A stretch of 64,000 nucleotides of DNA from a virus (lineage: Duplodnaviria > Heunggongvirae > Uroviricota > Caudoviricetes). The stretch spans positions 92,944 to 156,943 of the IMG/VR virus record IMGVR_UViG_3300028042_000001. The stretch is one strand, 5' to 3'. The position numbers and the translations under genes were made by a program. Below the pieces are notes generated by a model. It saw nothing but the letters and a program-made list of their open reading frames with translations. It was not told the origin of the DNA and did not search any database. Below, piece by piece: positions 1 through 15,835 of this stretch. Positions within the stretch are counted from its first letter, which is position 1, and every line of letters begins with the position of its first letter.

Positions 1-33
1 AGAATCTCGGTTCGAGTCCGAGGTTGCCCACAA
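1..33 (+). tRNA. partial tRNA (3' end only, cut by window start)
   Basis: GGTTCGAGTCCGAGG T-arm followed by an acceptor 3' strand ending ..CCCACA; the 5' half lies outside the window. Confidence 0.45.
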
Positions 34-41
34 TTAAATAT

Positions 42-116
42 GCAGGGTGGAAGTAACGGTAACTTCACTTGTCTCATAAGCAAGAATATTGGCAGTTCGA
101 TTCTGCCCCCTGCGCA
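42..116 (+). tRNA. tRNA-Met/Ile2 (anticodon CAT)
   Basis: acceptor GCAGGG/CCCTGC, D-stem GAAG/CTTC, anticodon stem CTTGT/GCAAG with loop CTCATAA, T-arm GGCAGTTCGATTCTGCC. Confidence 0.65.
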
Positions 117-490
117 ATATTTTATAAAAGGAAATTTATTATGGATCTATGGATATGTGTTGTATGATGGGTTGTATTTGTGATATGTATTTTTATACAT
201 GCTTTAATCATGTGTATTATATTTGACAACTATAATATTAGTGATAATTATAGTGGTTGGATTATAGAATTTCCTAATAAATATAAACGGTTTTTTCTAT
301 TTATGATTGGTGGTGTTTTTTGTTGGGTTTATATTGGGGTTGATTATATTAGATATAAAGTTTCATGTAATATTTTTACAATAATATATAAATGGTTTGG
401 TACAAAATAATATATAAGGAGATATATATGTATAGTAACGGAGGAATTGGTTTTTTATAAGTAATTCAACTTAACTTATAGGAGACTAAA

Positions 491-850
491 ATGAGCAGAA
501 CGTACAGAAGAAGAAAGGGTGAAAAGCCTTCGTCTTGGATAACACATGAATATATATGTGTTGATGAATATACACGTAAAGATAAAGTTATTTTAATATC
601 ATGGATACGTGGATTGTGGAAAGATATTCCTAGAACTGGAAATGATTTAAAAAAACATCTTGCTATATATCATGCTGATGGTTATAGTCATATGAATCAT
701 GTTCCTTCTTGGTTTGTGAATCAGTATTTTACACGCAAGGATAGAGCAAAAGAAAGGCAAGAGCTTAAACGAATTATGAAACGTGGTGGTGAATATGATG
801 ATTATTCATTTCGACCATATAGAAGGGGTGCTCTTTGGGAATGGTGGTGA
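491..850 (+). CDS. hypothetical basic protein (119 aa)
   Basis: ORF with upstream GGAG; K/R-rich N-terminus; no recognisable motif. Confidence 0.4.
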   Translation: MSRTYRRRKGEKPSSWITHEYICVDEYTRKDKVILISWIRGLWKDIPRTGNDLKKHLAIYHADGYSHMNHVPSWFVNQYFTRKDRAKERQELKRIMKRGGEYDDYSFRPYRRGALWEWW

Positions 851-1192
851 ATACAAGGGTATTAAATTAAAGGAATAACGTTATGAAGCAGAAAGAGTTT
901 ATTGAATATATGATAAAAGAAGTTGATAAGTTTTCTGGTGAGATGGATGATTATGATGAGATGGACTTTGAAGAATGGTATGATCAATGGGATGCATTTA
1001 TGACCGATTGAATCATAAAGAACGTGTATATTGGGTGCTCCCATTAATCTTGCTATTAGAACGCTGGATATACATATGAATAGGTTGGCTACTCCAAAAA
1101 AAAAGTAGTCGTGAAATAGCATATAATAATACATATATTATATGGAATGATACTAACGTAATGGGTAAGACGGACACATAACCGTCAATAAT

Positions 1193-1266
1193 GGTCTTGT
1201 CATCCAACGGTTCGGATAGTAGGTTTTCAACCTAAAAATCGGAGTTCGATTCTCCGCAAGATCGCA
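1193..1266 (+). tRNA. tRNA-Glu (anticodon TTC)
   Basis: acceptor GGTCTTG/CAAGATC, anticodon loop TTTTCAA, T-arm GGAGTTCGATTCTCC. Confidence 0.65.
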
Positions 1267-1271
1267 TATAT

Positions 1272-1363
1272 TCTCTTGATAGCCTATTTCTGATCAGATG
1301 GGCGAGTAAAGTTCTCATAAAGGGACATTGGGTATTGTAGGTTCGAATCCTACCAAGAGAGCA
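1272..1363 (+). tRNA. atypical long tRNA-like element (92 nt)
   Basis: perfect 7-bp acceptor pairing TCTCTTG/CAAGAGA and canonical T-arm GTAGGTTCGAATCCTAC; the D and anticodon arms cannot be folded canonically. Confidence 0.35.
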
Positions 1364-1368
1364 AAAAT

Positions 1369-1443
1369 GCCTATTAAACATTTATTGGATGATGTCTGCT
1401 CTTGTAAAGCAGGGAAGGGAGATCGTTACTCTCAATAGGCTCA
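1369..1443 (+). tRNA. tRNA-Thr (anticodon TGT)
   Basis: acceptor GCCTATT/AATAGGC; anticodon stem CTGCT/AGCAG with loop CTTGTAA. Confidence 0.6.
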
Positions 1444-1513
1444 AGTACATTACGAACTTCTTGTTTGTATAAATACTATTATAGGTATTTACTTCACAAC
1501 AGGAGATTGGTAA

Positions 1514-2167
1514 ATGAGAAAAGGAATGAGTTGTTCTGAATCTGGTAAATTAGGAGCATTGAAATCAAAGGTCATACAAGAAACAAAGTTACAAGATAGA
1601 AAAGAAAATTATTACATGATACCAAAATTATGTGAGTATTGTGGTAATATAATAAAATATAAGAAAAGACATAATAGGTTCTGTAATAGATCATGTTCAG
1701 CTTCTTTTAATAATAAAGGAGTTAGGAGACATGGAAATTCAGATAATAACAAAAAAGAGAAGGTTTGTTTGTGGTGTGGTGGATCAGATTTCAGTAAAAA
1801 TTCTAAGAAATTTTGCTCTATGGAATGTCATCACAAATATGAATATTATATATTTATTAATAAATGGAAACTTGGTATTGATAATGGCAACAGAAAAAAT
1901 TGCATAGCAAACCAGATAAGAAGGTATTTATTTGATAAGTATAATAATAAATGTTCAAGGTGTGGATGGAAAGAGATAAATCCAATCACAAATAAAGTTC
2001 CTCTCGAAATAGAACATATTGATGGTAATCATAAAAATAATAATGAATATAATCTTGATTTGATATGTCCTAATTGCCATTCTTTAACACCAACATATAA
2101 ATTATTGAATAAAGGTAATGGACGTTATTATCGTAAAAAACGATATAATTCTGGAAAGAGTTATTAA
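1514..2167 (+). CDS. HNH endonuclease, Cys-rich, putative homing endonuclease
   Basis: C-terminal HNH motif EIEHIDGNHKNN..LICPNCH; multiple CxxC pairs; TATAAATA (T4 late-promoter-like) 39 nt upstream. Confidence 0.75.
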   Translation: MRKGMSCSESGKLGALKSKVIQETKLQDRKENYYMIPKLCEYCGNIIKYKKRHNRFCNRSCSASFNNKGVRRHGNSDNNKKEKVCLWCGGSDFSKNSKKFCSMECHHKYEYYIFINKWKLGIDNGNRKNCIANQIRRYLFDKYNNKCSRCGWKEINPITNKVPLEIEHIDGNHKNNNEYNLDLICPNCHSLTPTYKLLNKGNGRYYRKKRYNSGKSY

Positions 2168-2188
2168 ATTAAAACAAAGGAGATATAA

Positions 2189-2842
2189 ATGAAAGAAAAT
2201 TATTGTCATATAGTTGGAATTATTGATTGTTCTGGATCTATGGTTGGATTAGAAAATGATGTAATTGGTGGGTTTAATAAATTTGTTGATGATCAAAGAA
2301 AAGCAAAAGGTACAGCAACTATGTCTTTAATTCAATTTGATGATGGTTATTATTCAGATTTTGAATTTGTTAATATTAATGATGTTCCTGATTTAAATCG
2401 TGATACTTATATTCCTCGTGGTATGACTGCATTGTATGATGCTATTGGAAAAACTATTAATTCTACAGGAGAGGTTCTTAAAAATATGAATGAAAATGAT
2501 CGTCCTGATCGGGTTGTTGTTTTTATTCAAACTGATGGACAAGAAAATAGTTCTTTAGAATATAATGCAAATTCAATAAAGCAAATGATTAACAAACAAG
2601 AAGAAATGTATAATTGGTCTTTTGTTTTTCTTGGCGCTAATATTAATGCAAAAAGTACAGCTAATATTATTGGTATTGATAAAAAAATGTCAATGACTTT
2701 TGCCGCAAATAGTAAAGGAACAACTTCAGCGTTTAATTCTGTATCTGAGAATCTTTCTGCTGTTCGGTGTGGAACTAAATTAAATATGTGTTATGAGAGT
2801 AAAGATTATAGTGCTCAAGCTGATGCAGGTCTTCATATTTAA
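2189..2842 (+). CDS. von Willebrand factor type A (vWA) domain protein
   Basis: N-terminal MIDAS motif IIDCSGSM (DxSxS) and vWA-like length/layout; RBS AAGGAG. Confidence 0.6.
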   Translation: MKENYCHIVGIIDCSGSMVGLENDVIGGFNKFVDDQRKAKGTATMSLIQFDDGYYSDFEFVNINDVPDLNRDTYIPRGMTALYDAIGKTINSTGEVLKNMNENDRPDRVVVFIQTDGQENSSLEYNANSIKQMINKQEEMYNWSFVFLGANINAKSTANIIGIDKKMSMTFAANSKGTTSAFNSVSENLSAVRCGTKLNMCYESKDYSAQADAGLHI

Positions 2843-2927
2843 TATAAAAACCCTTGACATTCATTAAAAATATGATTATAGTATTTTTAATGAATAATGT
2901 ATATTAAATTTTGAGGAGGATTACATC

Positions 2928-3185
2928 ATGAAATACAATCAAATAGTTAATAAAATTCGTAGTGTTGTTTATAGTTGTGAAACTAATGAGCAATTAGATG
3001 TTGCTTGTAAATATTCATTTTTGTTAATTGATAATTATTTCATAATTAACAAAAATGATAATATTGATGAACGATATGATAAAATTTTTTTAAAGAATGA
3101 AATGTATAATTGGCTTAAATTTATTACTGTTAATAATAATAACATTAACAGTAGAATTATTGGTGTATGTGAAAAAGAAATATAA
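2928..3185 (+). CDS. hypothetical protein (85 aa)
   Basis: ORF with GAGGAGG RBS. Confidence 0.4.
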   Translation: MKYNQIVNKIRSVVYSCETNEQLDVACKYSFLLIDNYFIINKNDNIDERYDKIFLKNEMYNWLKFITVNNNNINSRIIGVCEKEI

Positions 3186-3193
3186 AAAAAAAT

Positions 3194-3268
3194 GGGGCAT
3201 TAGCCCACGCTGGTAGAGGCACAAGGTTTAAGCCCTTGATAGGATCGGTTCGACTCCGATATGCCCTA
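3194..3268 (+). tRNA. tRNA with anticodon TAA (Leu by standard code) but short variable arm
   Basis: acceptor GGGGCAT/ATGCCCT, anticodon stem CAAGG/CCTTG, loop TTTAAGC, T-arm ATCGGTTCGACTCCGAT; paralog of the tRNA at 15761. Confidence 0.6.
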
Positions 3269-3636
3269 ATTATATGCTGAAATTCCTTTGAATAGGTATG
3301 GATACATAATGGTTTGATTCCATGATTTCAGCTCCATTTTTTTGGATGTATAAATAATAATATGAAATCGTTTAGAGAGTTAAATAATAATGATGTTTGT
3401 GTAAATTGCAAACATTGGCTGAAATTAATGAAGCAACATTCTCATCGTAATACATGATATTGTAGAAAAATAGGAAACAAACCTTCTTTATTTGATAAAT
3501 GGGATGTTACTGATTTTGATAATACATGTATTGATTATAAAAGAAGGAAAAAAATAAAATGAAATTTTATAAACATAAACAGGAAAAATACAAAGGAATT
3601 TAGACCATACATACAATATCGGTCTATATTCACTAT

Positions 3637-3711
3637 GGATCGGTGGCGCAACTGGATTAGCGCATCAGGTTTTTACCCTGAATGTTGAGAGTTCGAATCT
3701 CTCTCGATCCA
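3637..3711 (+). tRNA. tRNA-Lys (anticodon TTT)
   Basis: acceptor GGATCGG/TCGATCC, anticodon stem CAGG/CCTG with loop TTTTTAC, T-arm GAGAGTTCGAATCTCTC. Confidence 0.75.
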
Positions 3712-3760
3712 CAATAATGAATGTTATGAAAAGCTTTAAAAAATGTAAAAAAATAAAAAT

Positions 3761-3837
3761 GCGGATTGATAAGTTAAGGGTTTTGACAAACAGTTTTCCA
3801 AACTGTAAATATGGAGTTCGACTCTCCCGATCCGCTC
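3761..3837 (+). tRNA. tRNA-Gly (anticodon TCC)
   Basis: acceptor GCGGATT/GATCCGC, anticodon stem ACAGT/ACTGT with loop TTTCCAA, T-arm GGAGTTCGACTCTCC. Confidence 0.7.
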
Positions 3838-4123
3838 AATAATGGAATTTATGAATTGGTTTAAGAGAATATTTCATATACATAAATGGTTTTTATTATC
3901 ATATGAATGGTGATGCTATGCGTATTTGTGTTAAGTGTGAATGTATTCAAATTAAGAATAACAATAAATGGAATAAGAAATGAAAGTATCAAGAAACAAC
4001 AATCATAGAAGTAACTCGTATATTATGGCTATTACGCCTGTATGTGTGTCTGTGCGCTTTTTTGATGCGTATCCTATAGTGAAAACTATGTAGCTCATTT
4101 CCTTTATATTAGGAAAACCTGAA

Positions 4124-4160
4124 GGGGGAAATGAGATTAAATCTTGTTTCCCCCTTTTTT
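4124..4160 (+). terminator. rho-independent terminator
   Basis: GGGGGAAA...TTTCCCCC hairpin followed by TTTTTT. Confidence 0.6.
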
Positions 4161-4261
4161 ATTGATCTTTGAAAATAGAATATTGAAAGTATGGTATATC
4201 CATAACTATCACTATACCAATAAGTATAAATATTAATATACTTATAAAATAGGAGATTGTA

Positions 4262-4867
4262 ATGGATATAACTATAGCTAATGTAAAAAGGTTAATTAAA
4301 GATGGATTTACACAGAAACAAATTGCAGAAGAATTTGATATTAGCCCATCTGGATTAAGATATTGGTTAAAAAAATATAATTTAAAAACTAATTATATGG
4401 TTGATAGAAGAACATGGACTGACGATATGCTTATTGAAGCAGTTTCTAAATCTATTAGTATAGCTGATGTTATACGAAATATTGGTTTATCATTAAGACC
4501 GGGGAATTATCCAACAATTAACAAAGTTATAAAACGCCTTGATCTTGATATATCACATTTTAAAGGAAAATCTCATGGTAATGGTGGTATTGTGTATGAG
4601 TTAGAAGATGTTATGATTAGAAATTCTCCATATTCAAGAACATCTTTAAAGAGGAGGTTGTTAAAATGTAATATGATAGAGAATATATGTGATATATGTG
4701 GTATTGGTGAATGGAATAATAAACCAATTGTGATGGTACTCGATCATATAAATGGAATTAATAATGATCATCGTAGAGAAAATTTGCGAATGATATGTCC
4801 TAATTGTAACAGCCAACAAAATACCTTTTGTCGTAGAAATAAAAATGGGGGTATAGCTCAGAGGTAG
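4262..4867 (+). CDS. HNH endonuclease with N-terminal HTH, putative homing endonuclease
   Basis: HTH-like FTQKQIAEEFDISPSGLRYWLKKY; HNH motif LDHINGINNDHRRENL..CPNCN; TATAAATA at 4225-4232 upstream; 3' end overlaps the next tRNA. Confidence 0.75.
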   Translation: MDITIANVKRLIKDGFTQKQIAEEFDISPSGLRYWLKKYNLKTNYMVDRRTWTDDMLIEAVSKSISIADVIRNIGLSLRPGNYPTINKVIKRLDLDISHFKGKSHGNGGIVYELEDVMIRNSPYSRTSLKRRLLKCNMIENICDICGIGEWNNKPIVMVLDHINGINNDHRRENLRMICPNCNSQQNTFCRRNKNGGIAQR

Positions 4868-4919
4868 AGCATTACCGTGAAATGGTATGTGTCGAAAGCT
4901 CGAAACTTTCTATCCCCAC
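4847..4919 (+). tRNA. tRNA-like (anticodon GAA, Phe?) with imperfect acceptor stem
   Basis: D-arm TAGCTCAGAGGTAGAGC, anticodon loop GTGAAAT, T-stem GAAAG/CTTTC; two mismatches at the base of the acceptor stem. Confidence 0.45.
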
Positions 4920-4927
4920 AAACATAT

Positions 4928-5011
4928 GGAGAGTTGGCAGAATGGCTATTGCACCCGGCTGTAACCCGGCAGTACCTTTTTAGGTTCTTGGTTCGAGTCC
5001 AAGGCTCTCCA
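4928..5011 (+). tRNA. tRNA-Tyr (anticodon GTA), long variable arm
   Basis: acceptor GGAGAGT/GCTCTCC, anticodon stem CCGG/CCGG with loop CTGTAAC, long variable arm, T-arm TTGGTTCGAGTCCAA. Confidence 0.65.
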
Positions 5012-5040
5012 CAATTTATAATATATATATAACAAAAGAC

Positions 5041-5068
5041 TTGACTTTAAATTTATATAGTGTATAGT
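5041..5068 (+). promoter_or_regulatory. sigma70-like promoter (TTGACT-16-TATAGT) with conserved leader, copy 1 of 3
   Basis: consensus-like -35/-10; followed by leader CATACTTGAGACAAACATTAATTATGGAGAACATAATG, which recurs at 53702 and 51799. Confidence 0.5.
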
Positions 5069-5108
5069 GTATTCATACTTGAGACAAACATTAATTATGG
5101 AGAACATA

Positions 5109-5471
5109 ATGACAATTGACGTAGAAAAATTTCTCAAAGAATATATGAATGAAATGGAAATTAGACTTAATCGATTAGAAAACAGCATTAAACCACGAGG
5201 AATTATATGTGGTCAGAATTGGATTGTTAGAGTTAAAGGTATTTGTGTTACTCCTGAATTTGATAAAGATGGTCAAACAACAGGTGTAGTTAAAAATAAT
5301 GATCCTGATCTTGTTATGAGATTTGTTCAAGAAGATGCTGAAATGCTTGCTTCTACAACAACTAACGGTGCTGGTGATAAAGGTGAATCTGTTATATGGG
5401 CAGATGCAGTAAGGGATTTAATTGAAGAACTTAAACCTCAACTTGAAATATTGAAGAATCGTAAAAAATAA
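5109..5471 (+). CDS. hypothetical protein (start chosen at second ATG, after GGAGA)
   Basis: ORF; RBS GGAGA lies 7 nt upstream of ATG 5109; the track start at 5067 is inside the conserved leader. Confidence 0.45.
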   Translation: MTIDVEKFLKEYMNEMEIRLNRLENSIKPRGIICGQNWIVRVKGICVTPEFDKDGQTTGVVKNNDPDLVMRFVQEDAEMLASTTTNGAGDKGESVIWADAVRDLIEELKPQLEILKNRKK

Positions 5472-5477
5472 ATAAAT

Positions 5478-5563
5478 GGATGCTGTCAGTAAGGTTAGAT
5501 GGTCTAACGGTTGGTTGTAACCCAACTCCCAAAGGGCATGAGGTTCGATTCCTCCGGTATCCA
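5478..5563 (+). tRNA. type II tRNA (apparent anticodon GTA; long variable arm)
   Basis: acceptor GGATGCT/GGTATCC (with G-U pairs), anticodon stem GTTGG/CCAAC with loop TTGTAAC, variable stem CCC/GGG, T-arm GAGGTTCGATTCCTC. Confidence 0.5.
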
Positions 5564-5918
5564 CAAAAATTGAGGTAGTATTATTATTATGTTTATACCA
5601 GATTGTATTATATATTCAGAAGTAAGACCGTCACCAATTATCACATATTATATCGTTGCTATGTTTGATCATAGTGGTGATTGTGATAAATGGCATTATA
5701 CTAATCCTGAAGTATGGGTATAAATTTAAAGAAGTAACGGATATATTATGAAATTAAAAAGATCAAAGATTAAAAAATTTCATGAAGGTGATGTGTATAA
5801 TTTCGTGAATGGTGTTGCAAAAGTTCCTAATATGTTTTTTGGTAGAGGTATAACAAGAGAACAAGCAACAGTATCATTAAAAGATTTTAATATTTTTATT
5901 AAAAAATAGATTATTTAT

Positions 5919-6095
5919 GCCACATTAGCTCAGTGGGTAGAGCGGTTGGAAAAGCGTCATAATTGATTTTTGTATTTAATATTGTATAATAGACTTAATT
6001 AATCCATTATACAATATGATTATAAGAATGATTGTACATAATTTCTTATAATGTTATTTAAATTAATTGCACAGGTTCGAATCCTGTATGTGGCT
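5919..6095 (+). tRNA. tRNA gene interrupted by ~110-nt AT-rich intervening sequence (possible intron)
   Basis: 5' part GCCACAT TA GCTCAGTGGGTAGAGC (acceptor plus D-arm); 3' part ACAGGTTCGAATCCTGT ATGTGGC, T-arm plus a perfectly complementary acceptor strand, about 130 nt downstream. Confidence 0.5.
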
Positions 6096-6216
6096 CATAG
6101 TATAAGTTGTCAAGTAGCTCTTGACTGATGTGGGAGTTTTTCAGTTCCTTCCTACAAAGAATATATAAGCGCTGATAATATTGCAATAATCGGTAATAAC
6201 TGACCAAATTTGTACA

Positions 6217-6292
6217 TCAGAATGTAGGCTAATGGTAAGCCCTTCCTCTTGGACAGGAAAAATTAGAGGTTCGAGTCCTCTCATTCTGACCA
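6217..6292 (+). tRNA. tRNA-Pro (anticodon TGG)
   Basis: acceptor TCAGAATG/CATTCTGA, anticodon stem TTCCT/AGGAA with loop CTTGGAC, T-arm AGAGGTTCGAGTCCTCT, CCA encoded. Confidence 0.75.
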
Positions 6293-6680
6293 TTTTTATT
6301 ATATTAAATAGATGATATCACAGTTGAGGGATATGAGAGTAGGATTTAATTCACAATCTCATTGAAATTACCTATGTATTACGAGGGTTGATCTCCTTAA
6401 TCTATTTGTTTTAGACCAATAATACTGATACGCAAGCGGTCTATTTAGTATAATATTTTTACTTGAATTAAAAATTAAAAAAAAAAGAGGATATTATGAA
6501 AATTTTTTGGAAAGTTGATGACGGATATGTTAATAATGTAGAGCATATGACTGAAATTCCTGATGAAGATTTGGAAGGAATGTCACCAGATGTTAGAAAA
6601 ATGGAAATTGATGAATGGGTTTCTGACGATTTCTCTCAAAATATTTCTTTTGAGATTATCAGAGAAGAATCATAATTAAT

Positions 6681-6856
6681 GTCCTTCGTTGGCTGTCGTA
6701 TGTGAATTTCCTTACAAGGAGCGCATATTAACCATGAATCGGATATGCGAAATTGTAAATACGGATCATGAACTGGTATTAACTTGATACCTGAAGATGG
6801 AACCCTGAAGCTACTGTAAGGGTAGATAAGGCAAGGTTCGATTCCTTGGAAGGGCA
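6681..6856 (+). other. tRNA-like element: T-arm plus acceptor 3' end, with complementary acceptor 5' strand 170 nt upstream (insertion or fragment)
   Basis: CAAGGTTCGATTCCTTG GAAGGGC A at 6832-6856 pairs with GTCCTTC at 6681-6687; intervening sequence has no canonical D/anticodon arms. Confidence 0.3.
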
Positions 6857-6880
6857 CATTTTAATTGACATTGCATGGGT

Positions 6881-6943
6881 ACAGGTGTACAATGAAAGCT
6901 CATATCTTTCATGTAGTGGGTTCGATACCCATACATGCAACCA
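6881..6943 (+). tRNA. tRNA-Met (anticodon CAT), compact D-arm
   Basis: acceptor TTGCATG/CATGCAA plus CCA; anticodon stem TGAAAG/CTTTCA with loop CTCATAT; T-arm GTGGGTTCGATACCCAT. Confidence 0.6.
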
Positions 6944-7026
6944 AAAATAATAATGATAATGTGAAAAAAAAAATGAATATATAATATTAGAAATGTTTAT
7001 AGTTGAAAAACCTGATCAGGAAATAT

Positions 7027-7100
7027 GGTCTTGTGGCTCATTGGTAGAGCGGTACGTTGTCAGCGTATTTTAAGAGGGTTCGATTCCCTTCAAGATCGCA
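7027..7100 (+). tRNA. tRNA-Asp (anticodon GTC)
   Basis: acceptor GGTCTTG/CAAGATC, D-arm GGCTCATTGGTAGAGC, anticodon loop TTGTCAG, T-arm GAGGGTTCGATTCCCTT. Confidence 0.75.
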
Positions 7101-7350
7101 TGAGGATTATTATTTAATTCTCTTTGATAGTAGGTACATACTGTTATTAATTTAACACCATGAACCGTGGGATGAAAAATATTCCCAAAAGTTTAGGGTA
7201 GAGAATGATCTTATTAACCATTTGATTATATCTATCCTTGGTGAAGATGCGAGAGTAGTAAGGTAGCTGTGGTGGTATATCTGAAATCAACCATTAGTAG
7301 CCTAAAAAATTATTGTTAGATTAATAACTATTCGATGAGTAGTTATTGAT

Positions 7351-7424
7351 GTGACAGTAGCTCAAAGGTTAGATCATGTGGCTGTGACCCACAAGATGAG
7401 GGTTCGATTCCCTCCTGTCACCCA
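7351..7424 (+). tRNA. tRNA-His (anticodon GTG)
   Basis: acceptor GTGACAG/CTGTCAC, D-arm TAGCTCAAAGGTTAGA, anticodon stem TGTGG/CCACA with loop CTGTGAC, T-arm GAGGGTTCGATTCCCTC, CCA. Confidence 0.75.
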
Positions 7425-7450
7425 TTTAAATTAAAAAGGATATATATTAT

Positions 7451-7771
7451 ATGAAAGTGATTGATGCAGGACATACATATTTACTTGATGATAACAAATC
7501 ACCAACAAATACTACAACATTAACATTTATGAAGGATGCTAAAATAAATGGAGATGGTTATGAAGGAACAACTAATCAGGAAGTTTTACGAGCATTAATA
7601 GATCGTATTAAATTTCTAGAAGGGCAAGTTCATCATAGATTTAATGATGATATTATTGGTCATCTTAGGATGGCATTGGTTCTTCATGAAGAACGACATT
7701 TAGAACGATTAGTAGAACGAGGAGAATCTATAGAAAATATTAAACCTAAAATTACTGGACATTTTGTATGA
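7451..7771 (+). CDS. hypothetical protein (106 aa)
   Basis: ORF with AAGGA RBS; ATGA overlap with the next gene. Confidence 0.45.
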   Translation: MKVIDAGHTYLLDDNKSPTNTTTLTFMKDAKINGDGYEGTTNQEVLRALIDRIKFLEGQVHHRFNDDIIGHLRMALVLHEERHLERLVERGESIENIKPKITGHFV

Positions 7772-8130
7772 ATAATAAGGAATTGTTATTTTCTATAACA
7801 AAGAAAGATTTTGATTTGTATTGGTTTTCTGGAACTGGTGCTGGTGGTCAAGGACGTAATAAGCTTCAGAACAGCCTTAGATTGTCTCATAGACCATCAG
7901 GAGCATCATCAACAGGGCAAAGTAGTAAAAGTAGAGTTGCTAATCAGAAAGAGGCATTTAAAGGTATTATGGAACATCCTAAGTTTAAGATGTGGTATAA
8001 TAAAAAAATTATGGAGTGCTTATATGAAGAAACAACTGAAGAAAAAATTAAAAAACAAATGATTCCTGATAATCTACGAATAGAAGGTAAAGATGATAAA
8101 GGTAGATGGAATAAAATTATAGAAGATTAG
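7768..8130 (+). CDS. ArfB/RF-1-domain-like GGQ-motif protein (putative peptidyl-tRNA hydrolase / ribosome rescue factor)
   Basis: FSGTGAGGQGRNKLQNSLRLSHRPSGASSTGQSSKSRVANQKEAF parallels the ArfB GGQ domain pattern (..GAGGQHVNKT.TAI.L.....Q.R....N), followed by a basic tail. Confidence 0.6.
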   Translation: MNNKELLFSITKKDFDLYWFSGTGAGGQGRNKLQNSLRLSHRPSGASSTGQSSKSRVANQKEAFKGIMEHPKFKMWYNKKIMECLYEETTEEKIKKQMIPDNLRIEGKDDKGRWNKIIED

Positions 8131-8193
8131 TCTAGGGGTTAAGGCATCTCGCTTACATCGAGAATAACACTGGTTCGAATCCAGTATCTTCTA
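8121..8193 (+). tRNA. tRNA-Val (anticodon TAC)
   Basis: acceptor AGAAGAT/ATCTTCT, anticodon stem TCTCG/CGAGA with loop CTTACAT, T-arm CTGGTTCGAATCCAG; 5' end overlaps the stop of the upstream CDS. Confidence 0.7.
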
Positions 8194-8201
8194 AATTATA
8201 T

Positions 8202-8423
8202 ATGGTGAATATTATGGCATTAGTTAATGGAAAGATTTTAAAAGGTGATGATTGTCCTTATAAGAATATTTGTGATTTTATGATAACTGCCTGTAATGGC
8301 GAAGGATGTCCATTTTTGTTTAAAGATAATCATTTTTGTGAGTTTTCTTGTGGTGCCTCTAGATTTTATGCTCTTATGGAAAAATCAGAAAAATCAGAAA
8401 AAAATAAATATAAGAGTAAATAA
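8202..8423 (+). CDS. hypothetical Cys-rich small protein
   Basis: ORF; several Cys residues, no recognisable motif; GAAAAATCA x2 repeat at 3' end. Confidence 0.4.
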   Translation: MVNIMALVNGKILKGDDCPYKNICDFMITACNGEGCPFLFKDNHFCEFSCGASRFYALMEKSEKSEKNKYKSK

Positions 8424-8443
8424 ATTAAAAGAGAGAATTTATT

Positions 8444-9454
8444 ATGAATTTTAGAAAATATAGTTCTATAGAAAATACATACAGAACAAAAACAATTAAT
8501 TATATTGTTGAATGTGGATATTCTTCTGGTATATGGGTTTCTTCTTTAAAAATTCATGGTGCTAATTATAGTTATTGGAGTGATGGTGATGTTGTAAAAA
8601 AAGCTAGAAAATCAGGATTTCTTGAAGGAGAATCATTTTATGGAGATTCAACATTTAATTATGATCAAAATATATTGAATATGTTTAACAATCTTAAAAA
8701 GCAAGGAGATTTTAGTACTCTTACTGTATATGGAGAAATATATGGAGGAATATACAATCATCCTAATGTAGAAGCTATTAAAAATGTTAAAAAAGTTCAG
8801 AAAGAGGTACAATATAGACCTGATGTTAATTTTATTGTTTTTGATATAAGAGTTGATGATATATTATTAGATCATTATACTGTTGTTGAATTATGTGATC
8901 AATTTGGATTTTTTCACGTACCTGTGTTGGGAATGGGATCTTTTTATGATTTAATGAAAACTCCTGTTGTATTTCCTGATCCTCTTGGTATAATGTTGGG
9001 TTATCCAAAGTTAGAAGATAATGATGCAGAAGGATGGGTGTTAAAACCTGTTATGCCAGAATTTTTTAATAATGGTTCAAGAGTTATTCTTAAAGGTAAA
9101 AATCCTTCCTTTTCTGAAAAAAATGGTGGAAAAAAAGGAAAAATTCATAATACAATAATTGAGATGTCAAAAGAAGGAGATTATATCAAAGAAGAATTAT
9201 TGTTATATATTAATGAAAACAGACTGAGAAATGTATTATCTCATGGGGAGATTTGTAAAATAACTCAAAAAGATTTTGGTAAATTATTAGGATTATTTTC
9301 TAAGGATATTTTTGTTGATTTTTTGAAAGATAATAAAGATAAATTTGATATTATTGATAAGAAAGAACAAATCACTATAAAGAGAATTATGAACAAAACT
9401 GCTGGTGATATTATCCGGTTAAATTTTCTAAATATTATAGATGGTGAATTTTAG
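8444..9454 (+). CDS. rnlB: RNA ligase 2 (T4 Rnl2-like)
   Basis: KYSSIEN N-terminus; nucleotidyltransferase motif I KIHGANYS (T4 Rnl2 KIHGTN); EGWVLKP..NNGSRVILKGKN.SFSEK and KDFGKLLGL blocks match T4 Rnl2 closely. Confidence 0.9.
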   Translation: MNFRKYSSIENTYRTKTINYIVECGYSSGIWVSSLKIHGANYSYWSDGDVVKKARKSGFLEGESFYGDSTFNYDQNILNMFNNLKKQGDFSTLTVYGEIYGGIYNHPNVEAIKNVKKVQKEVQYRPDVNFIVFDIRVDDILLDHYTVVELCDQFGFFHVPVLGMGSFYDLMKTPVVFPDPLGIMLGYPKLEDNDAEGWVLKPVMPEFFNNGSRVILKGKNPSFSEKNGGKKGKIHNTIIEMSKEGDYIKEELLLYINENRLRNVLSHGEICKITQKDFGKLLGLFSKDIFVDFLKDNKDKFDIIDKKEQITIKRIMNKTAGDIIRLNFLNIIDGEF

Positions 9455-9700
9455 ATGGATATTATAAAAACAGGAATTGATGTATTACTTGTTAGCTGTA
9501 TTAATGATAGTAATACATTAACTATAGGTGATGTTTATGAAGTTTTAATATATCAAAATATTCCTCTTGAAAATACATATACTATTGGTGTTATTAATGA
9601 TACTGGTATTTTTGCCAAATATGATGCTAAAACATTTTCTATGGTTTATATTAAACCTGATGTTATATTAAATGATCCTAAACCAGAAGGGCCATTATAA
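9455..9700 (+). CDS. hypothetical protein (81 aa)
   Basis: ORF abutting neighbours (TAGATG junction). Confidence 0.4.
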   Translation: MDIIKTGIDVLLVSCINDSNTLTIGDVYEVLIYQNIPLENTYTIGVINDTGIFAKYDAKTFSMVYIKPDVILNDPKPEGPL

Positions 9701-10168
9701 ATGTCTGCTATAGCTTTTTCTCAAAGTGCGTATGATGAATTTGATAGTAAAGGTAAAACCACAGTAAAACGGTTTTTTAAGTCAAAAGGATTTTTTTGTT
9801 ATCCTGATGATGAGGAACGAGGAATTGATCTTCATTTTTCAAAAAAAGATCATCCAGATATTTATATAGAAGTAGCGGTAAGACATTATTTTGATTGGCC
9901 GTTGTATGATTGGAAAATAAAAGCACCATGGGAAACAATTCATATTTTACGAAGAAAGGCTAAATATGGAAGACCTGAACCGTTTTGGTATGGCGATAAA
10001 GCATACTTATTCGAACTTAATAGAAGTATGGAACAAGCTTTTGTTATAAGACCTTGTGATTTACAAAAGAAATATTTAAAACTTCTAACTAATGTTCGTG
10101 GGAAGGAATGGATTTATGATATTCCTGTAGAAGAATTTAAAATATTTGATTTAAGAATGCATCAGTAG
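9701..10168 (+). CDS. hypothetical protein (155 aa)
   Basis: ORF; no recognisable motif. Confidence 0.45.
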   Translation: MSAIAFSQSAYDEFDSKGKTTVKRFFKSKGFFCYPDDEERGIDLHFSKKDHPDIYIEVAVRHYFDWPLYDWKIKAPWETIHILRRKAKYGRPEPFWYGDKAYLFELNRSMEQAFVIRPCDLQKKYLKLLTNVRGKEWIYDIPVEEFKIFDLRMHQ

Positions 10169-10234
10169 TCAAATTGGATTGGCACAAGATTACGAATCTT
10201 GATTGATGTGGGTTCGACTCCCATCTGGTGCTCA
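10159..10234 (+). tRNA. tRNA-Arg (anticodon ACG)
   Basis: acceptor GCATCAG/CTGGTGC, anticodon stem CAAGA/TCTTG with loop TTACGAA, T-arm TGGGTTCGACTCCCA. Confidence 0.6.
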
Positions 10235-10240
10235 AAATAT

Positions 10241-10316
10241 GCGTCTGTAGCTCAGTTGGAAGAGCACGAGATTTCTACTCTCGGTGTCGGAGGTTCGATC
10301 CCTCTCAGGCGTTCCA
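10241..10316 (+). tRNA. tRNA-Arg (anticodon TCT)
   Basis: acceptor GCGTCTG/CAGGCGT, D-arm TAGCTCAGTTGGAAGAGC, anticodon stem CGAGA/TCTCG with loop TTTCTAC, T-arm GGAGGTTCGATCCCTC, CCA. Confidence 0.75.
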
Positions 10317-10339
10317 TAATTAATATAAAGGAGGATGAT

Positions 10340-10840
10340 ATGGAAAGGGTGATAGTGTTAAATTATGATTATAGTTTTCTAAATGTTGTTTCTCCTGAAA
10401 AGGCTTTTTCTTATATAGCTCGTGGAAAGGTTATTGTTGAAAAAGTAGCGGATAAGGTCTTGACAACTGCTGAAAAATCATTTAAAATACCTGTAATTGT
10501 TCGGTTCTCTTATATGATAAGACAAATATATAAGAGAAAAATACCATGGAGTAAGCGTAATGTGTGTATCAGAGATAATTATACCTGTGCATACTGTGGT
10601 GTAAAAAGTGATATAATGACAGTTGATCATGTTATACCTAAAGCTCATGGAGGAAAAAACACTTTTGATAATTGTGTTGCATCATGTAAGAAATGTAATA
10701 ATAAAAAAGGTGATAAAACATGTAAAGAAATAGGAATGTTTCCTTCTCATAATAGAACACATCCTACTGTTTCTGACTTCATGCGATTATGGTATAAACA
10801 ATATAATGTAAATGATATTATAAAATCAATATGGGAGTGA
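10340..10840 (+). CDS. HNH endonuclease
   Basis: CAYCGVKSDIMTVDHVIPKAHGGKNTFDNCVASCKKCNNKKG HNH motif; RBS AAGGAGGA; the track ORF start at 10199 is translated tRNA sequence, so the start was moved to the ATG at 10340. Confidence 0.75.
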   Translation: MERVIVLNYDYSFLNVVSPEKAFSYIARGKVIVEKVADKVLTTAEKSFKIPVIVRFSYMIRQIYKRKIPWSKRNVCIRDNYTCAYCGVKSDIMTVDHVIPKAHGGKNTFDNCVASCKKCNNKKGDKTCKEIGMFPSHNRTHPTVSDFMRLWYKQYNVNDIIKSIWE

Positions 10841-10844
10841 TAAT

Positions 10845-11057
10845 ATGAGTACAACTGCATTAGATATACAAAAATTTAATTTATGCGAATATAAAGCTAG
10901 AGAAAATGATATTATTATTGATGTTAAATCTGAAGGATTTTTATTGACAAGAAGATCAGATTATTGTATACTTGGAAAAATCTTAACTGTAGAAGAGATG
11001 TATAGTTATTTTTGTGGTTATGAATCAGGATTAGATAAGGGGTTGTCTGATAGTTAA
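10845..11057 (+). CDS. hypothetical protein (70 aa)
   Basis: ORF only. Confidence 0.35.
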   Translation: MSTTALDIQKFNLCEYKARENDIIIDVKSEGFLLTRRSDYCILGKILTVEEMYSYFCGYESGLDKGLSDS

Positions 11058-11078
11058 ATATTAATACGAGGGTATATT

Positions 11079-11486
11079 ATGAATTTTAATCCATATGGTG
11101 TTTGGGAAGTTACTACAGAAGGTGATTGTGAAGGAAGAAGCATAACACATCTTGGTACATTTACGGGTTATTTTGATGTTATAGCTTTAAATCTTGCAAA
11201 ATCTTGTTATTATACTCTTGATTTTAAAAGAATTGATATTGGTAATAATTTAGTTCCTACAAAAAATGAAGTGTCTGTTCGTATTTGGGAAATGGGAAAC
11301 AATATTAAACAATACGAACAATTATTAACAGATCGTGATGTTTATATTAAAGAAAGTAAATTTTTTAAATCTGTTATTATTTGCACTAATAATCCTATAT
11401 CTGAGGAAGAAGCAGAAGCATTAAAAGCTAGAAACTTACTTATTGAAAAAGGCTTTGATGTTGAATCAATAAAAAAATATATATAG
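11079..11486 (+). CDS. hypothetical protein (135 aa)
   Basis: ORF with GAGGG RBS. Confidence 0.45.
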   Translation: MNFNPYGVWEVTTEGDCEGRSITHLGTFTGYFDVIALNLAKSCYYTLDFKRIDIGNNLVPTKNEVSVRIWEMGNNIKQYEQLLTDRDVYIKESKFFKSVIICTNNPISEEEAEALKARNLLIEKGFDVESIKKYI

Positions 11487-11491
11487 TATAT

Positions 11492-11563
11492 GTCTATGTT
11501 CGATGGTTCGGTGTGCTGTCTGCAAAATAGTAAATAAGGGTTCGATTCCCTTCATAGACTCCA
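11492..11563 (+). tRNA. tRNA-Cys? (anticodon GCA)
   Basis: acceptor GTCTATG/CATAGAC perfect; anticodon loop CTGCAAA with a G-U-containing stem; T-arm AAGGGTTCGATTCCCTT; CCA. Confidence 0.55.
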
Positions 11564-11567
11564 ACAT

Positions 11568-11664
11568 GGTATGTGCCGACCAAAGGTGGTCAGCAAGATT
11601 TGAAATCTTGTGGCATGTCTGATGAGGGCATGGGGTTCAATTCCTACACATACCGCATTAATTA
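11568..11664 (+). tRNA. tRNA-Ser (anticodon TGA), type II
   Basis: acceptor GGTATGTG/CACATACC, anticodon stem CAAGA/TCTTG with loop TTTGAAA, long variable arm GGCATG..CATGCC-like, T-arm GGGGTTCAATTCC. Confidence 0.75.
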
Positions 11665-11710
11665 AATATATAGTATATTTAATAATATATAATATAAAAA
11701 GGAGATTATT

Positions 11711-12157
11711 ATGAGGTATGAAGGATGTACAAGTGAAACAGATGCAATAGTAGAAGATATTACAAGAGAAGAATTTCCAAATCTTGATGGAGCAAATATT
11801 ATGATTGTTATGGATACCAAAAAAAAGGTATCTGGTGGTCGTTATGTTATTGCACGTATTAAGAAAATGAATGATGAATTAAAGTTTTTTACTGCTAACG
11901 ATTATGGTATTACATATGATTATGTAATGTTTATAGATAAAGTTATTTTTGATGAGCTTAATTATGATGATAAAAAAAGAATAATTTATCATGAATTATG
12001 TCATTGTGAAGTTGATCCTAGTAAAAATAATCCTTATGGGATAAAAGATCATGAAATTCAAGGATTCCATGATGAATTATCTTATAATGAAGATGATCCT
12101 AGATGGAATGAACGGGTTAGTGCTGTTGCTGAATCTATTTATGATGATGACGAATAA
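11711..12157 (+). CDS. hypothetical protein with HExxH motif (possible metallopeptidase-like)
   Basis: YHELCHCE contains HExxH; AAGGAG RBS; acidic C-terminus. Confidence 0.4.
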   Translation: MRYEGCTSETDAIVEDITREEFPNLDGANIMIVMDTKKKVSGGRYVIARIKKMNDELKFFTANDYGITYDYVMFIDKVIFDELNYDDKKRIIYHELCHCEVDPSKNNPYGIKDHEIQGFHDELSYNEDDPRWNERVSAVAESIYDDDE

Positions 12158-12182
12158 TATACAAAATAATACACATTAACTA

Positions 12183-12211
12183 TTGACTTTATATTTAATG
12201 TGTATTATAAT
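12183..12211 (+). promoter_or_regulatory. sigma70-like promoter TTGACT-17-TATAAT followed by inverted and direct repeats
   Basis: consensus -35/-10; downstream IR AATAACCATTAT/ATAATGGTTATT and direct repeat ATTATGGTAGTTAATGAT x2. Confidence 0.45.
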
Positions 12212-12316
12212 AACCATTATGGTAGTTAATGATTACTATAATGGTTATTATGGTAGTTAATGATCATGAAGCAGAAACACCAGAAGTACAAGAAGAAATA
12301 ATAAAATAAAAAATAT

Positions 12317-12390
12317 GGCTCGTTAGCTCATTGGAAGAGCGTTTGGCTGATCACCAAAAGAGATAGGATCGTTACCTGTACGAGCTACCA
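12317..12390 (+). tRNA. tRNA-Ile? (anticodon GAT)
   Basis: acceptor GGCTCGT/ACGAGCT, D-arm TAGCTCATTGGAAGAGC, anticodon stem TTTGG/CCAAA with loop CTGATCA, CCA; T-loop non-canonical. Confidence 0.55.
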
Positions 12391-12472
12391 CATAAAAATG
12401 AACCTCTATTTATATTTATACAAATGGAAATAGAGGTTCATAATATGATTAGTTATAAAAGAGTAAAAAAAT

Positions 12473-12560
12473 GACCATGGGTGGTTCGTCTAATTAGGGA
12501 GGACACTTACCCGTTATGTGGTTTGAAATATAGGTTCGATTCCTATACGATTCATGGTCA
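12473..12560 (+). tRNA. long tRNA-like element (88 nt)
   Basis: perfect acceptor pairing GACCATG/CATGGTC and T-arm ATAGGTTCGATTCCTAT; internal arms not resolvable by eye. Confidence 0.35.
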
Positions 12561-13051
12561 TTTTTTTATTACTAAGGATATATCATGATAAAACACATAA
12601 TTCTGCTGATGTGTTTGTGATGGATATTGCTCAAACATATGATGGATTAAAAGTTATAGAGTATAATACATTTAATTCTGCTGGATTATATGCCTGTGAT
12701 GTTGGTAATATAATTGATGGTATAAACAATTTCTTACAAGAACCATGTTGAGGTTCATTACCTCTTCATGAGAACGGACTATGCGTAAGTAGTCTTCCTA
12801 AGTGGTACGCAACCATGTAGGGCAAAATCAATAAGTCTTTTTGAAGGACATGTGTTGATGTTGTGGTGAAAATCCATATTACGATCCAATGGGGCTATAC
12901 TTGGGAGGACTGAATGGCTTGCAACCAATCGGGCAGGGTTCAATTCCCTGTAGTTCCACAATATATTTTTCAGCGATATCAGCCACTAAAGCTGATAACG
13001 GTGTTCTTAATCACTTAACAGAATGCGAAGGAGTAGTGACCGGACTGAAAC

Positions 13052-13125
13052 GCTACATGGTGAAATGTTATCACAAAGGGATATATGACCCTTAGTTTCA
13101 GGTTAAATTCCTGATGTAGCAACCA
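13052..13125 (+). tRNA. tRNA-like with apparent 8-nt anticodon loop (ATATATGA)
   Basis: acceptor GCTACAT/ATGTAGC, D-stem GTGA/TCAC, anticodon stem AAGGG/CCCTT enclosing 8 nt, T-arm TCAGGTTAAATTCCTGA. Confidence 0.4.
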
Positions 13126-13133
13126 TTTTTAAT

Positions 13134-13217
13134 GGAAGTATGGCAGAGTATGGTAATGTACCTGATTGCTAATCAGTGGTCAAGGAAACTTGCGTAGGTT
13201 CGAATCCTACTACTTCC
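13134..13217 (+). tRNA. tRNA-Ser (anticodon GCT), type II
   Basis: acceptor GGAAGTA/TACTTCC, D-arm TGGCAGAGTATGGTAATG, anticodon stem CTGA/TCAG with loop TTGCTAA, long variable arm, T-arm GTAGGTTCGAATCCTAC. Confidence 0.7.
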
Positions 13218-13272
13218 TCATATTATGATTATCATGTAGATAATATTAAATTAATTCAAAAGGAGAGTTATT

Positions 13273-13617
13273 ATGGAAGGAGTAGATTTCCCAAAAGTAA
13301 ATAAAGAAGAAGATCAAGGTCAAGGTCAAGAGGCATTTACAGTTTCTGCTGAAATGCTTTTAGCTCAAATTGTACAGGCTGTTGGGGAAGAATTTGTTAT
13401 TATTCCAACTTCAGGATGGCAAAAAATTGTTACTACTATTCAAGATTATTCTAAATCAGCACAAAATTCACTCACAAATGATGAAGATTTACTAAAAATT
13501 TTAGAAGGTCTTGGTATTCCTGTAATTCCTGTTAGTCTTGCACCAAAACAGGAAGAAAGCCTTATTATTATGCCAAATGATACACCTAAAGGCGAATCTA
13601 AAATAATTATTCCATAA
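13273..13617 (+). CDS. hypothetical protein (114 aa)
   Basis: ORF with AAGGAG RBS. Confidence 0.45.
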   Translation: MEGVDFPKVNKEEDQGQGQEAFTVSAEMLLAQIVQAVGEEFVIIPTSGWQKIVTTIQDYSKSAQNSLTNDEDLLKILEGLGIPVIPVSLAPKQEESLIIMPNDTPKGESKIIIP

Positions 13618-13664
13618 ATTATGTTTTATATGCGTTAATGAAATTTATAAAAAAAAGGTAAATA

Positions 13665-14603: not shown

Positions 14604-14682
14604 CTTGACAAATATAATCTCATATTGTATGATAATTTATCAACAATACAAAATATTAATATTACAATATGAGAGGTTTATT

Positions 14683-15057: not shown

Positions 15058-15107
15058 ATCTGATATATTGTATTTATAAATCAGATTAATTCATCAAAAG
15101 GAATAAT

Positions 15108-15473: not shown

Positions 15474-15528
15474 TATATAATAATATTAATAATGATAAAT
15501 AATTATCAAAAAAAAAAGGAGATTTATT

Positions 15529-15750: not shown

Positions 15751-15760
15751 CTAATAGAAA

Positions 15761-15835
15761 GGGGTATTACTCCACGCTGGTAGAGAGAATAGGCTTAGAC
15801 CCTATACAGGATCGGTTCGACTCCGATATACCCTA
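15761..15835 (+). tRNA. tRNA with anticodon TAG (Leu by standard code), short variable arm
   Basis: acceptor GGGGTAT/ATACCCT, anticodon stem ATAGG/CCTAT with loop CTTAGAC, T-arm ATCGGTTCGACTCCGAT identical to the tRNA at 3194. Confidence 0.6.

Follow-up and report, generated by a model that had tools for sequence, protein, structure and literature searches.

What kind of gene leaves the two ends of a transfer RNA (tRNA) facing each other across a long AT-rich interval? We pursue this question for positions 5919–6095 of a 64,000-nucleotide stretch of viral DNA (hereafter the window; positions 92,944 to 156,943 of the IMG/VR record IMGVR_UViG_3300028042_000001). A preliminary description of this locus had seen in it an interrupted tRNA gene, and had offered three readings: a small self-splicing or protein-dependent tRNA intron, a mobile insertion that inactivated the gene, or a split tRNA. 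That description proves to be partly supported: the tRNA halves do pair with each other, but the three readings find no support in comparative data. Our comparison of related sequences instead suggests that the element is probably a conserved, stable, non-decoding small RNA of a T4-like phage, built upon a tRNA scaffold, and not an interrupted tRNA.

The element has the scaffold of a tRNA

Direct reading of the sequence confirms the outer architecture that had been proposed, with acceptor and D arm on the 5′ side and a T arm downstream. The 5′ strand of the acceptor stem, GCCACAT (5919–5925, + strand), is the perfect complement (7/7 bp) of the 3′ strand, ATGTGGC (6088–6094), which is followed by a discriminator T (6095); CCA is not encoded. 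A TA dinucleotide separates the acceptor strand from the D arm (GCTC-AGTGGGTA-GAGC, 5928–5943), which has G18 and G19 in its loop and aligns to the D arm of the Rfam tRNA model with high posterior probability; the same alignment delimits the T arm (ACAGG-TTCGAAT-CCTGT, 6071–6087). The AT-rich interval between the D and T arms is also present, but it is longer than the 110 nucleotides (nt) first estimated: it occupies about 126 nt (5945–6070). In a search of 5880–6220 (341 nt), the Rfam tRNA model (RF00005) aligned 5919–6095 end to end with 31.6 bits (E = 6e-5; the gathering score is 29 bits), covering model positions 1–71 and skipping 113 nt in place of the anticodon arm. Neither a default ARAGORN scan nor whole-window Rfam scans reported the element, and no tRNA within the window is a close paralogue of it. 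Thus 5919–6095 has the structural scaffold of a tRNA: a 7-bp acceptor stem, a D arm, a T arm with a GTTCGAATC-type loop, a score above the gathering level, and the elbow elements of a tRNA (the D-loop GG and the T-loop TTCGAAT).

In the predicted fold of 5919–6095 the acceptor, D and T helices are retained, and the central part forms two long hairpins (z-score of −2.8 against shuffled sequences). The first, H2 (5979–6017), appears in both the minimum-free-energy and the centroid folds as a 12-bp stem with a 15-nt loop, AGACTTAATTAATCC; it contains the 10-bp inverted repeat already recognised in the preliminary description (ATTGTATAAT/ATTATACAAT, 5981–5990 with 6006–6015), which the fold extends to 12 bp. 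The second, H3 (6019–6052), has a 10-bp stem (6019–6028 with 6043–6052) and a 14-nt loop, TGATTGTACATAAT (6029–6042); as described below, the loop is near-invariant among relatives while the stems differ. Between the D arm and H2 lies a degenerate remnant of an anticodon arm, GTTGG AAAA GCGTC, together with a linker that contains TTGAT (5945–5978 in all, at the site of the anticodon-arm hairpins of two homologues). A second linker, of conserved length, joins H3 to the T arm (6053–6070).

The two halves covary in diverged relatives

Relatives were reached through the gene for an Rnl2-type RNA ligase 2.4 kb downstream of the element, and through synteny of an open reading frame (ORF) of 53 amino acids; the contigs that encode Rnl2 homologues were fetched. 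Common to them is the gene order tRNA-Tyr, tRNA-Pro, tRNA-Asp, tRNA-His, a protein with an RF-1 domain, and Rnl2; the Rnl2 proteins are only ~60% identical. Two carry a homologue of the element. The copy in contig L001 (457–633) lies directly 3′ of a homologue of the 53-amino-acid ORF, has the same length as the window copy (177 nt), and reads GCTTCAT-TA-GCTC-ATTGGTA-GAGC ... ATAGG-TTCGAAA-CCTAT-ATGAAGC-T. The copy in contig L002 (3948–4175) is 228 nt long and reads GCGCCAT-TA-GCTC-AGTAGGTTA-GAGC ... GTTGG-TTCGAAT-CCGAC-ATGGGGC-A. The D arm is kept in both. Relative to the window, two or three acceptor pairs are changed in the homologues, mostly by double substitution, and one to three pairs of the T stem are changed with compensation. 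Since this long-range acceptor pairing is kept by compensatory substitutions in two other contigs, the element is more than a chance arrangement.

We quantified covariation in an alignment of the window, L001, L002 and L015 (a tRNA-like RNA described below), trimmed by hand to the 5′ module and to the region from H3 to the 3′ end. Overall, 83% of cells are paired, and 17 of the 26 pairs are changed on both sides. For each of the seven acceptor pairs, one or more of the four compared sequences differ at both positions (96% of cells paired); three of the five T-arm pairs also show changes on both sides (100% of cells paired). In 500 column shuffles, values as high as these never arose, and the signal collapses when the partner is slid by one to three columns. 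These controls, together with the covariation itself, indicate that the two tRNA ‘halves’ are parts of one selected structure. They are not independent, unrelated elements, which the preliminary description had named as the outcome that would count against it: compensatory changes link them in the homologues. By this comparison, the acceptor, T and H3 stems are kept by compensatory changes in two diverged relatives. Several stems contain G-U pairs, for example the H3 stem of L001 and the T stem of L002, which argues for an RNA of the + strand and not for a feature of the DNA or of the minus strand.

Apart from H3, almost no sequence similarity is left in the central part of the three copies. 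At the place of H2, L001 has a different stem (TTAAGG-ACGTAATTAAC-CCTTAA) around a common loop core (TAATTAA in the DNA, UAAUUAA in the RNA), so that the H2 stems covary between the window and L001; no counterpart of H2 was recognised in L002. The TTGAT motif of the linker, single-stranded at 5963–5967, is found by eye in 3/3 copies.

A decaying tRNA pseudogene, disrupted by a junk insert or by the remnant of a mobile element, could also account for a tRNA that has lost its middle: presence is patchy (the element is absent in L003, L021 and L031, three other contigs of this set), homing endonuclease genes of the HNH type occur within these arrays, the anticodon arm of the window copy is degenerate, and the scaffold resembles ordinary class I tRNAs. 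We nevertheless regard decay as highly improbable, since the acceptor, T and H3 stems have been kept by compensatory changes in genomes of ~60% Rnl2 identity, the 14-nt loop of H3 is invariant amid diverged flanking sequence, window and L001 copies are both 177 nt long, and the H3 module recurs in other lineages. The same facts speak against the inactivating mobile insertion of the preliminary description: stems covary, and it is within the supposed insert that the nearly invariant loop is situated.

The anticodon arm and the question of an intron

The anticodon arm is not maintained as a decoding unit. At its position L001 has a closed hairpin, GTTGC-GTAG-GCAAT (5-bp stem, tetraloop GTAG), and L002 has another, ACAGA-TGGATAA-TCTGT, in which the loop UGGAUAA carries G at position 33; the corresponding sequence of the window (GTTGG-AAAA-GCGTC) forms no closed stem, and it lacks both U33 and a 7-nt anticodon loop. 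A decoding tRNA would present a 5-bp stem, a 7-nt loop, U33, a purine at position 37 and a conserved anticodon; no anticodon is conserved in the three copies. Moreover, local closure of the hairpin at this position implies that the extra sequence follows the anticodon arm instead of lying inside its loop.

These observations bear directly upon the proposal that 5919–6095 is a tRNA gene with a small intron of a novel type outside group I, which an endonuclease of phage or host would excise and Rnl1 or Rnl2 would rejoin into a decoding tRNA. The phage does encode two RNA ligases (Rnl1 at 43710–44804, Rnl2 at 8444–9454) and a CCA-adding enzyme; the array in the window lacks tRNAs for Gln, Trp and Ser(UGA); and ARAGORN, when it may include introns, proposes a tRNA-Leu(taa) with one of 86 nt. 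That model is forced, however: it requires a mismatched extra arm, and the homologues offer nothing comparable. The window, L001 and L002 share no conserved anticodon loop, the arm is closed locally in the latter two, and the best-conserved part of the whole element would fall within the supposed intron. We therefore consider an intron very unlikely.

Searches for the introns themselves agree. Infernal models of group I and group II introns gave no match (E up to 10 on 5880–6220; E up to 5 on 1–17000), and among ribozymes, introns and riboswitches in Rfam there was no match other than tRNA. The preliminary description had judged the insert too short for a group I intron, and we concur. The group I introns of cyanobacterial tRNA-Leu(UAA) and tRNA-fMet genes do resemble our case in that tRNA halves are split by an intervening sequence in a bacterial-type genome. 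Yet bacterial tRNA group I introns run to well over 200 nt and have an intact anticodon loop and a P3–P8 catalytic core; the present insert measures only 126 nt, no such core was detected and there is no anticodon.

The short inserts of archaeal and eukaryal tRNAs, which are excised at a bulge-helix-bulge motif, offer a further likeness. We searched for this motif with our own scanner (two 3-nt bulges on opposite strands, a 4-bp helix between them, and an excision that rebuilds a tRNA). In the window, L001 and L002 the matches overlap the D arm and vary from one homologue to another, and 81–95% of shuffles yield such matches too; they are thus at chance level and at no consistent place, no anticodon stem-loop can be rebuilt, and the genome is that of a bacterial T4-like phage. 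As a positive control, the scanner found a perfect motif at the right place in an unrelated tRNA-Gln from contig L011, a textbook case of this intron class. We describe that gene for its own sake: a tRNA-Gln(UUG) at 1340–1470 of L011, with a 58–60-nt insert at position 37/38, in which a 5-bp stem, a UUA bulge, a CUUU/AAAG helix, a GAA bulge and a 10-bp helix follow one another. Excision of the insert would give the anticodon loop CUUUGAA, and the gene is probably archaeal or from an archaeal virus. The hairpin at the tip of its insert (loop TATTGTACATAAT) resembles H3, possibly by chance; an advocate of the intron reading could cite it.

The idea of a split tRNA fares no better: the two halves are on the same strand with 126 nt between them, and conservation extends to the unit as a whole.

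The H3 hairpin recurs in other lineages

If the middle of the element is free to diverge, what is the status of H3? Its 14-nt loop has the consensus [U/G]-R-A-N-UGUACAUAAU and is nearly invariant: L001 and L002 present the loop TGAGTGTACATAAT on stems that differ from that of the window, and in all three copies 31–32 nt separate the end of this motif from GGTTCGAA. We interrogated public collections with a pattern in which TGTACATAAT is followed 15–45 nt downstream by the T-arm consensus. Most matches were due to chance, and only three further H3-bearing lineages emerged from IMG/VR and the JGI metagenome collection. In their RNAs the 10-mer ends a loop of 14 nt (13–14 nt), closed flush by a stem of 6–7 bp: GTGTGG-GAAGTGTACATAAT-CCACAC in L015, AGAGAGT-TAAGTGTACATAAT-ACTCTCT in L034, and AGCTAA-TGAATGTACATAAT-TTAGCT in L036 (identical in L037 and L039). 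This flush geometry is seen only in tRNA-like contexts; chance matches of the 10-mer in coding sequence never show the hairpin. Matches in L004/L010, L017 and L044, which have no flush hairpin, were treated as chance or as different phenomena.

The scaffolds that carry H3 are diverse. The L015 RNA combines a D arm of tRNA-Leu type, a T arm and an acceptor stem with a tetraloop hairpin where the anticodon arm would be and with H3 at the position of the variable arm. In the L034 RNA, an acceptor stem and a T arm are present but a D arm is not; H3 takes the anticodon position, and there is a long extra hairpin. This RNA is the first of an array in which an amber-suppressor tRNA is also encoded. 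The L036 RNA is closed by a terminal stem of 9 bp and contains two hairpins that resemble T arms. Within 6 kb on either side, no proteins are common to the H3-bearing lineages, whether shared with the window's lineage or among themselves. The H3 module matches no Rfam family, and we found no description of it.

Positions 4 and 11 of the loop are pairable (G-U in four copies, A-U in one, U-U in one), and their pairing would leave a self-complementary hexaloop, UGUACA. Our scans found no H3-like hairpin with any other palindromic hexamer, which indicates that the sequence of the hexamer itself is constrained and not covarying.

Further searches delimit the family. There was no DNA match to the element in deposited phage genomes, and a collection of phage records gave matches to tRNA halves only. 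The exact 5′ half of the element was absent from IMG/VR; fixed-pattern scans of that database recovered L034 and L036 and no member of the window's own family, and protein-anchored scans of it recovered no relatives. A scan of GTDB genomes returned chance matches in coding sequence only, and the JGI metagenome scan yielded L015 and L011. Neither the RF-1 domain protein (7768–8130) nor the Rnl2 encoded in the window had an exact match among recorded proteins. Fixed-pattern scans being blunt instruments, the family may exceed the present set.

Candidate partners of the H3 loop

Which partner might read such a loop? In order of preference, our candidates are a sequence-specific RNA-binding protein or endoribonuclease, a second copy of the RNA, and the anticodon loop of tRNA-Tyr. 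The first derives from the sequence UACAUA (6035–6040), which the predicted fold displays single-stranded within the H3 loop, as a decoy for a MazF toxin should. UACAUA is a strict and conserved MazF cleavage motif in Bacillus, Listeria and Staphylococcus (preprint, bioRxiv 10.64898/2026.08.06.743204), and the Bacillus phage phi3T is reported to inactivate MazF by means of proteins (PMC10769878). An RNA that acts as decoy or pseudo-substrate is thus conceivable, but the match, a 6-mer noticed after the fact, is weak evidence. As to the second candidate, the self-complementary UGUACA could promote loop-loop dimerisation with another copy of the RNA. The third rests on UGUA, which resembles U33-G34-U35-A36 of tRNA-Tyr, and on UAC, a Tyr codon; a non-canonical Tyr-like tRNA precedes the element, closely in L002 and by 350 nt in the window. 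The link to tRNA-Tyr is only a pattern.

The first two candidates lead to a more specific proposal, to which we assign a low probability: H3 may be a portable RNA bait, mounted on tRNA-like scaffolds by several unrelated phages so as to neutralise or exploit a host factor specific for single-stranded UACAUA, or alternatively a site of UGUACA kissing and self-assembly of the kind seen in ROOL and GOLLD RNAs. For the bait, the leading candidate target would be the MazF/EndoA endoribonuclease of Gram-positive bacteria, against which Bacillus phages are known to deploy protein inhibitors (PMC10769878), and the RNA would then be the first tRNA-scaffolded RNA anti-toxin decoy.

A model for the element, and what weighs against it

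We envisage that the RNA is transcribed together with the + strand tRNA array, and that its tRNA-like module would direct RNase P to the 5′ end. Trimming and addition of CCA, by a host enzyme or by the enzyme that the phage encodes (36165–37556), would finish the 3′ end. Such tRNA-like maturation might confer a stability and an abundance comparable to those of a tRNA. The scaffold would then present the H3 loop, plus H2 in the window's lineage, to a partner that reads sequence; H3 would be the working, effector-like part of the RNA. The element has the same orientation as its 21 neighbouring tRNAs, as called by ARAGORN.

Several points weigh against this interpretation. One G-G mismatch interrupts the acceptor stem of L002. 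There are only three true homologues, so that the covariation statistics rest on few sequences and on a hand-trimmed alignment. The element is absent from the syntenic site in L003, L021 and L031, where other structured RNAs are found, and this absence implies that it is dispensable or mobile; on that distribution it appears to be an accessory gene of this phage group. With respect to its partners, TACATA is not avoided on the sense strand of the phage (31 observed against 30–41 expected under Markov orders 0–4; 16th lowest of 60 6-mers of the same composition), and the lack of UACAUA depletion argues against strong MazF pressure. Nor is there an antisense target for the loop within the window: the only exact match to ATTATGTACA is the element itself, and one-mismatch matches are at chance level (24, against 17.4 ± 4.3).

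The proximity of a small ORF raises another possibility, that of a cis-acting element for processing or stability: a tRNA-like ‘punctuation’ mark that recruits RNase P after the 53-amino-acid ORF (5748–5909), with hairpins that protect the ends. The ORF stops 10 nt upstream of the element in the window, its homologue in L001 is overlapped in its last codons, and small ORFs and tRNAs are intermixed on one strand of the array. However, L030, L031 and L032 have this ORF but lack the element, L002 has the element without that ORF directly upstream, and punctuation needs no invariant loop common to unrelated phages. We judge this explanation unlikely.

Comparison with known systems

For a non-decoding RNA on a tRNA scaffold, the closest precedent is the RNAC of phage T4 (species 1 RNA, rnaC); by analogy, our element seems to be of the same kind as RNAC, and not of the same family. 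RNAC is a small stable RNA within a T4-type tRNA cluster, on the strand of the tRNAs and beside its neighbour RNAD; the element shares this location and strand. In both, a T arm (CCGGG-UUCGAAU-CCCGG in RNAC) adjoins the terminal stem, and extra hairpins lie between. In contrast, RNAC is 139 nt long (the element, 177 nt) and has neither a canonical D arm nor an H3-type loop. Sequence homology between the element and rnaC does not extend beyond the 11-nt T loop, GGTTCGAATCC. RNAC accumulates late in infection as a stable, processed RNA (PMC9697503), and reviews still list its role as unknown (PMC3014915).

The tmRNA and the Y RNA-like RNA YrlA are also non-decoding, keep the elbow module of acceptor and T arm, and have the anticodon region replaced. 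A tmRNA was rejected as an identity for the element: the ARAGORN tmRNA search was negative, and there is no G3-U70 pair (pair 3:70 is C-G, U-A or G/G in the three copies). The ends of YrlA form a Ro-binding stem, not an acceptor stem; in an Rfam search of 1–17000, the only YrlA match was below threshold and lay over two Arg tRNAs at 10179–10293.

ROOL RNAs, which are several hundred nt long, and GOLLD RNAs are phage non-coding RNAs found, like ours, near tRNA islands. They are reported to self-assemble through kissing loops, and GOLLD RNAs often exceed 800 nt (PMC12286853). H3, with its self-complementary UGUACA, recalls these loops, but the element has only 177 nt, and no Rfam match was found at it or at related loci; that the 5919–6095 RNA self-assembles would be pure inference from this analogy.

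Finally, ToxI-type RNA antitoxins and the pseudo-ToxI decoys of phages offer a toxin endoribonuclease its own recognition sequence, and the H3 loop carries such a sequence in UACAUA, the site for MazF of Bacillota. Unlike those systems, the element has neither tandem repeats nor a linked toxin gene, and the transcripts of the phage do not avoid UACAUA.

Genome context and neighbouring elements

The window has 29% G+C and carries nearly all of its genes on the + strand. Its family B DNA polymerase is ~41% identical to those of T4-like cyanophages, and it also encodes a DnaB-like helicase, a RecA/UvsX-like protein and a ribonucleotide reductase; from this content, and from the ligases and the CCA-adding enzyme, the source appears to be a distant T4-like phage. 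Positions 1–16000 hold a + strand array with 21 tRNAs called by ARAGORN, in which the element lies between tRNA-Tyr (4928–5012) and tRNA-Pro (6218–6292). A kit for RNA repair and translation rescue is encoded on the same strand: a protein with an RF-1/GGQ domain (7768–8130), Rnl2, the CCA-adding enzyme, which has an HD domain, and the Rnl1-type ligase.

A second long tRNA-like element of 175 nt occupies 6681–6855 (+). Its acceptor strand GTCCTTC pairs with GAAGGGC (one G-U), its T arm is canonical (CAAGG-TTCGATT-CCTTG), and ~120 nt of structured sequence take the place of the middle; it has no canonical D arm, its fold has a z-score of −2.65, and neither ARAGORN nor Rfam calls it. Its 5′ part resembles L031 from ~1646 onward. 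The non-canonical tRNA-Tyr-like gene that we mentioned above (5480–5567, +) has an aberrant D region with ~7 extra nt; its anticodon loop is UUGUAAC, and its extra arm, CCC-AAA-GGG, is short. ARAGORN misses this gene, and the Rfam tRNA model gives it only 19 bits. The similar gene in L002 (3850–3937) is immediately upstream of the element's homologue. A tRNA(CAT)-like gene at 6870–6945 (+), whose D arm is greatly shortened, is not called by ARAGORN (TTGCATG ... CTCATAT ... GTGGG-TTCGATA-CCCAT-A-CATGCAA-CCA); it is 89% identical to L001 1539–1614 and has a counterpart in L002 at ~5075–5150.

Just upstream of tRNA-Pro is a conserved non-coding block of ~110 nt (6107–6215, +), with counterparts in L003 (5611–5715), L001 (697–760) and L021 (3828–3900). 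It begins with a 5′ hairpin on a covarying stem (GTCAAG-TAGC-TCTTGAC, GTCAGA-TAGC-GTCTGAC), continues with TGATGTGGGAG ... CCTTCCTACAAAGAAT, and is present with or without the tRNA-like element; it could represent a further small RNA or a signal for processing. The relatives, though not the window, also contain a structured region of ~300–400 nt with the conserved core ATTAGCGTAGGCGAAAGAAACCAGACAGGGTTAAAGGGACTGTCAAGCA (L001 ~810–1204, L002 ~4500–4776, L021 ~3300–3613, L031 ~920–1308), for which there was no Rfam family match apart from tRNA. Immediately downstream of this region comes an odd tRNA; its enlarged anticodon loop contains CATACGCTAAT, which is complementary to the upstream sequence TTAGCGTA. 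In L021, a structured non-coding stretch (3060–3200) with a long terminal stem (TTCGGGGGCGCATC ... GGATGCCCCACCGAA) comes after the ORF that follows tRNA-Tyr.

Elsewhere, ARAGORN assigns a four-base anticodon (atat) to 13051–13125 (+), where L001 and L003 have a tRNA-Ile(tat) at the matching place; it is probably a tRNA-Ile(UAU) called with an 8-nt loop. An isolated tRNA at 40115–40186 (+), 24 kb from the array, has the anticodon ATT (Asn; Rfam, 48.6 bits), in which an unmodified A34 would be unusual in bacteria. An ORF of 201 amino acids (4262–4867, +) combines an N-terminal helix-turn-helix domain with a C-terminal HNH-like motif (DHINGINNDHRRENLRMICPNCN) and extends at its 3′ end across the start of tRNA-Phe (4847); a homing endonuclease inside the tRNA array is its likely identity. 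HNH genes are also present in the arrays of L001, L002, L003, L021 and L025.

Implications

The tRNA arrays of phages are usually annotated from the calls of tRNA finders alone, and the array in this window contains at least four tRNA-shaped RNAs that the standard tools missed. Loci such as 5919–6095 ought not to be annotated as intron-containing tRNAs or as pseudogenes. If our interpretation is correct, the fifty-year-old puzzle of T4 RNAC and RNAD would widen to a class of tRNA-scaffolded effector RNAs, for which the invariant loop UGUACAUAAU would provide a handle for asking what such RNAs bind.

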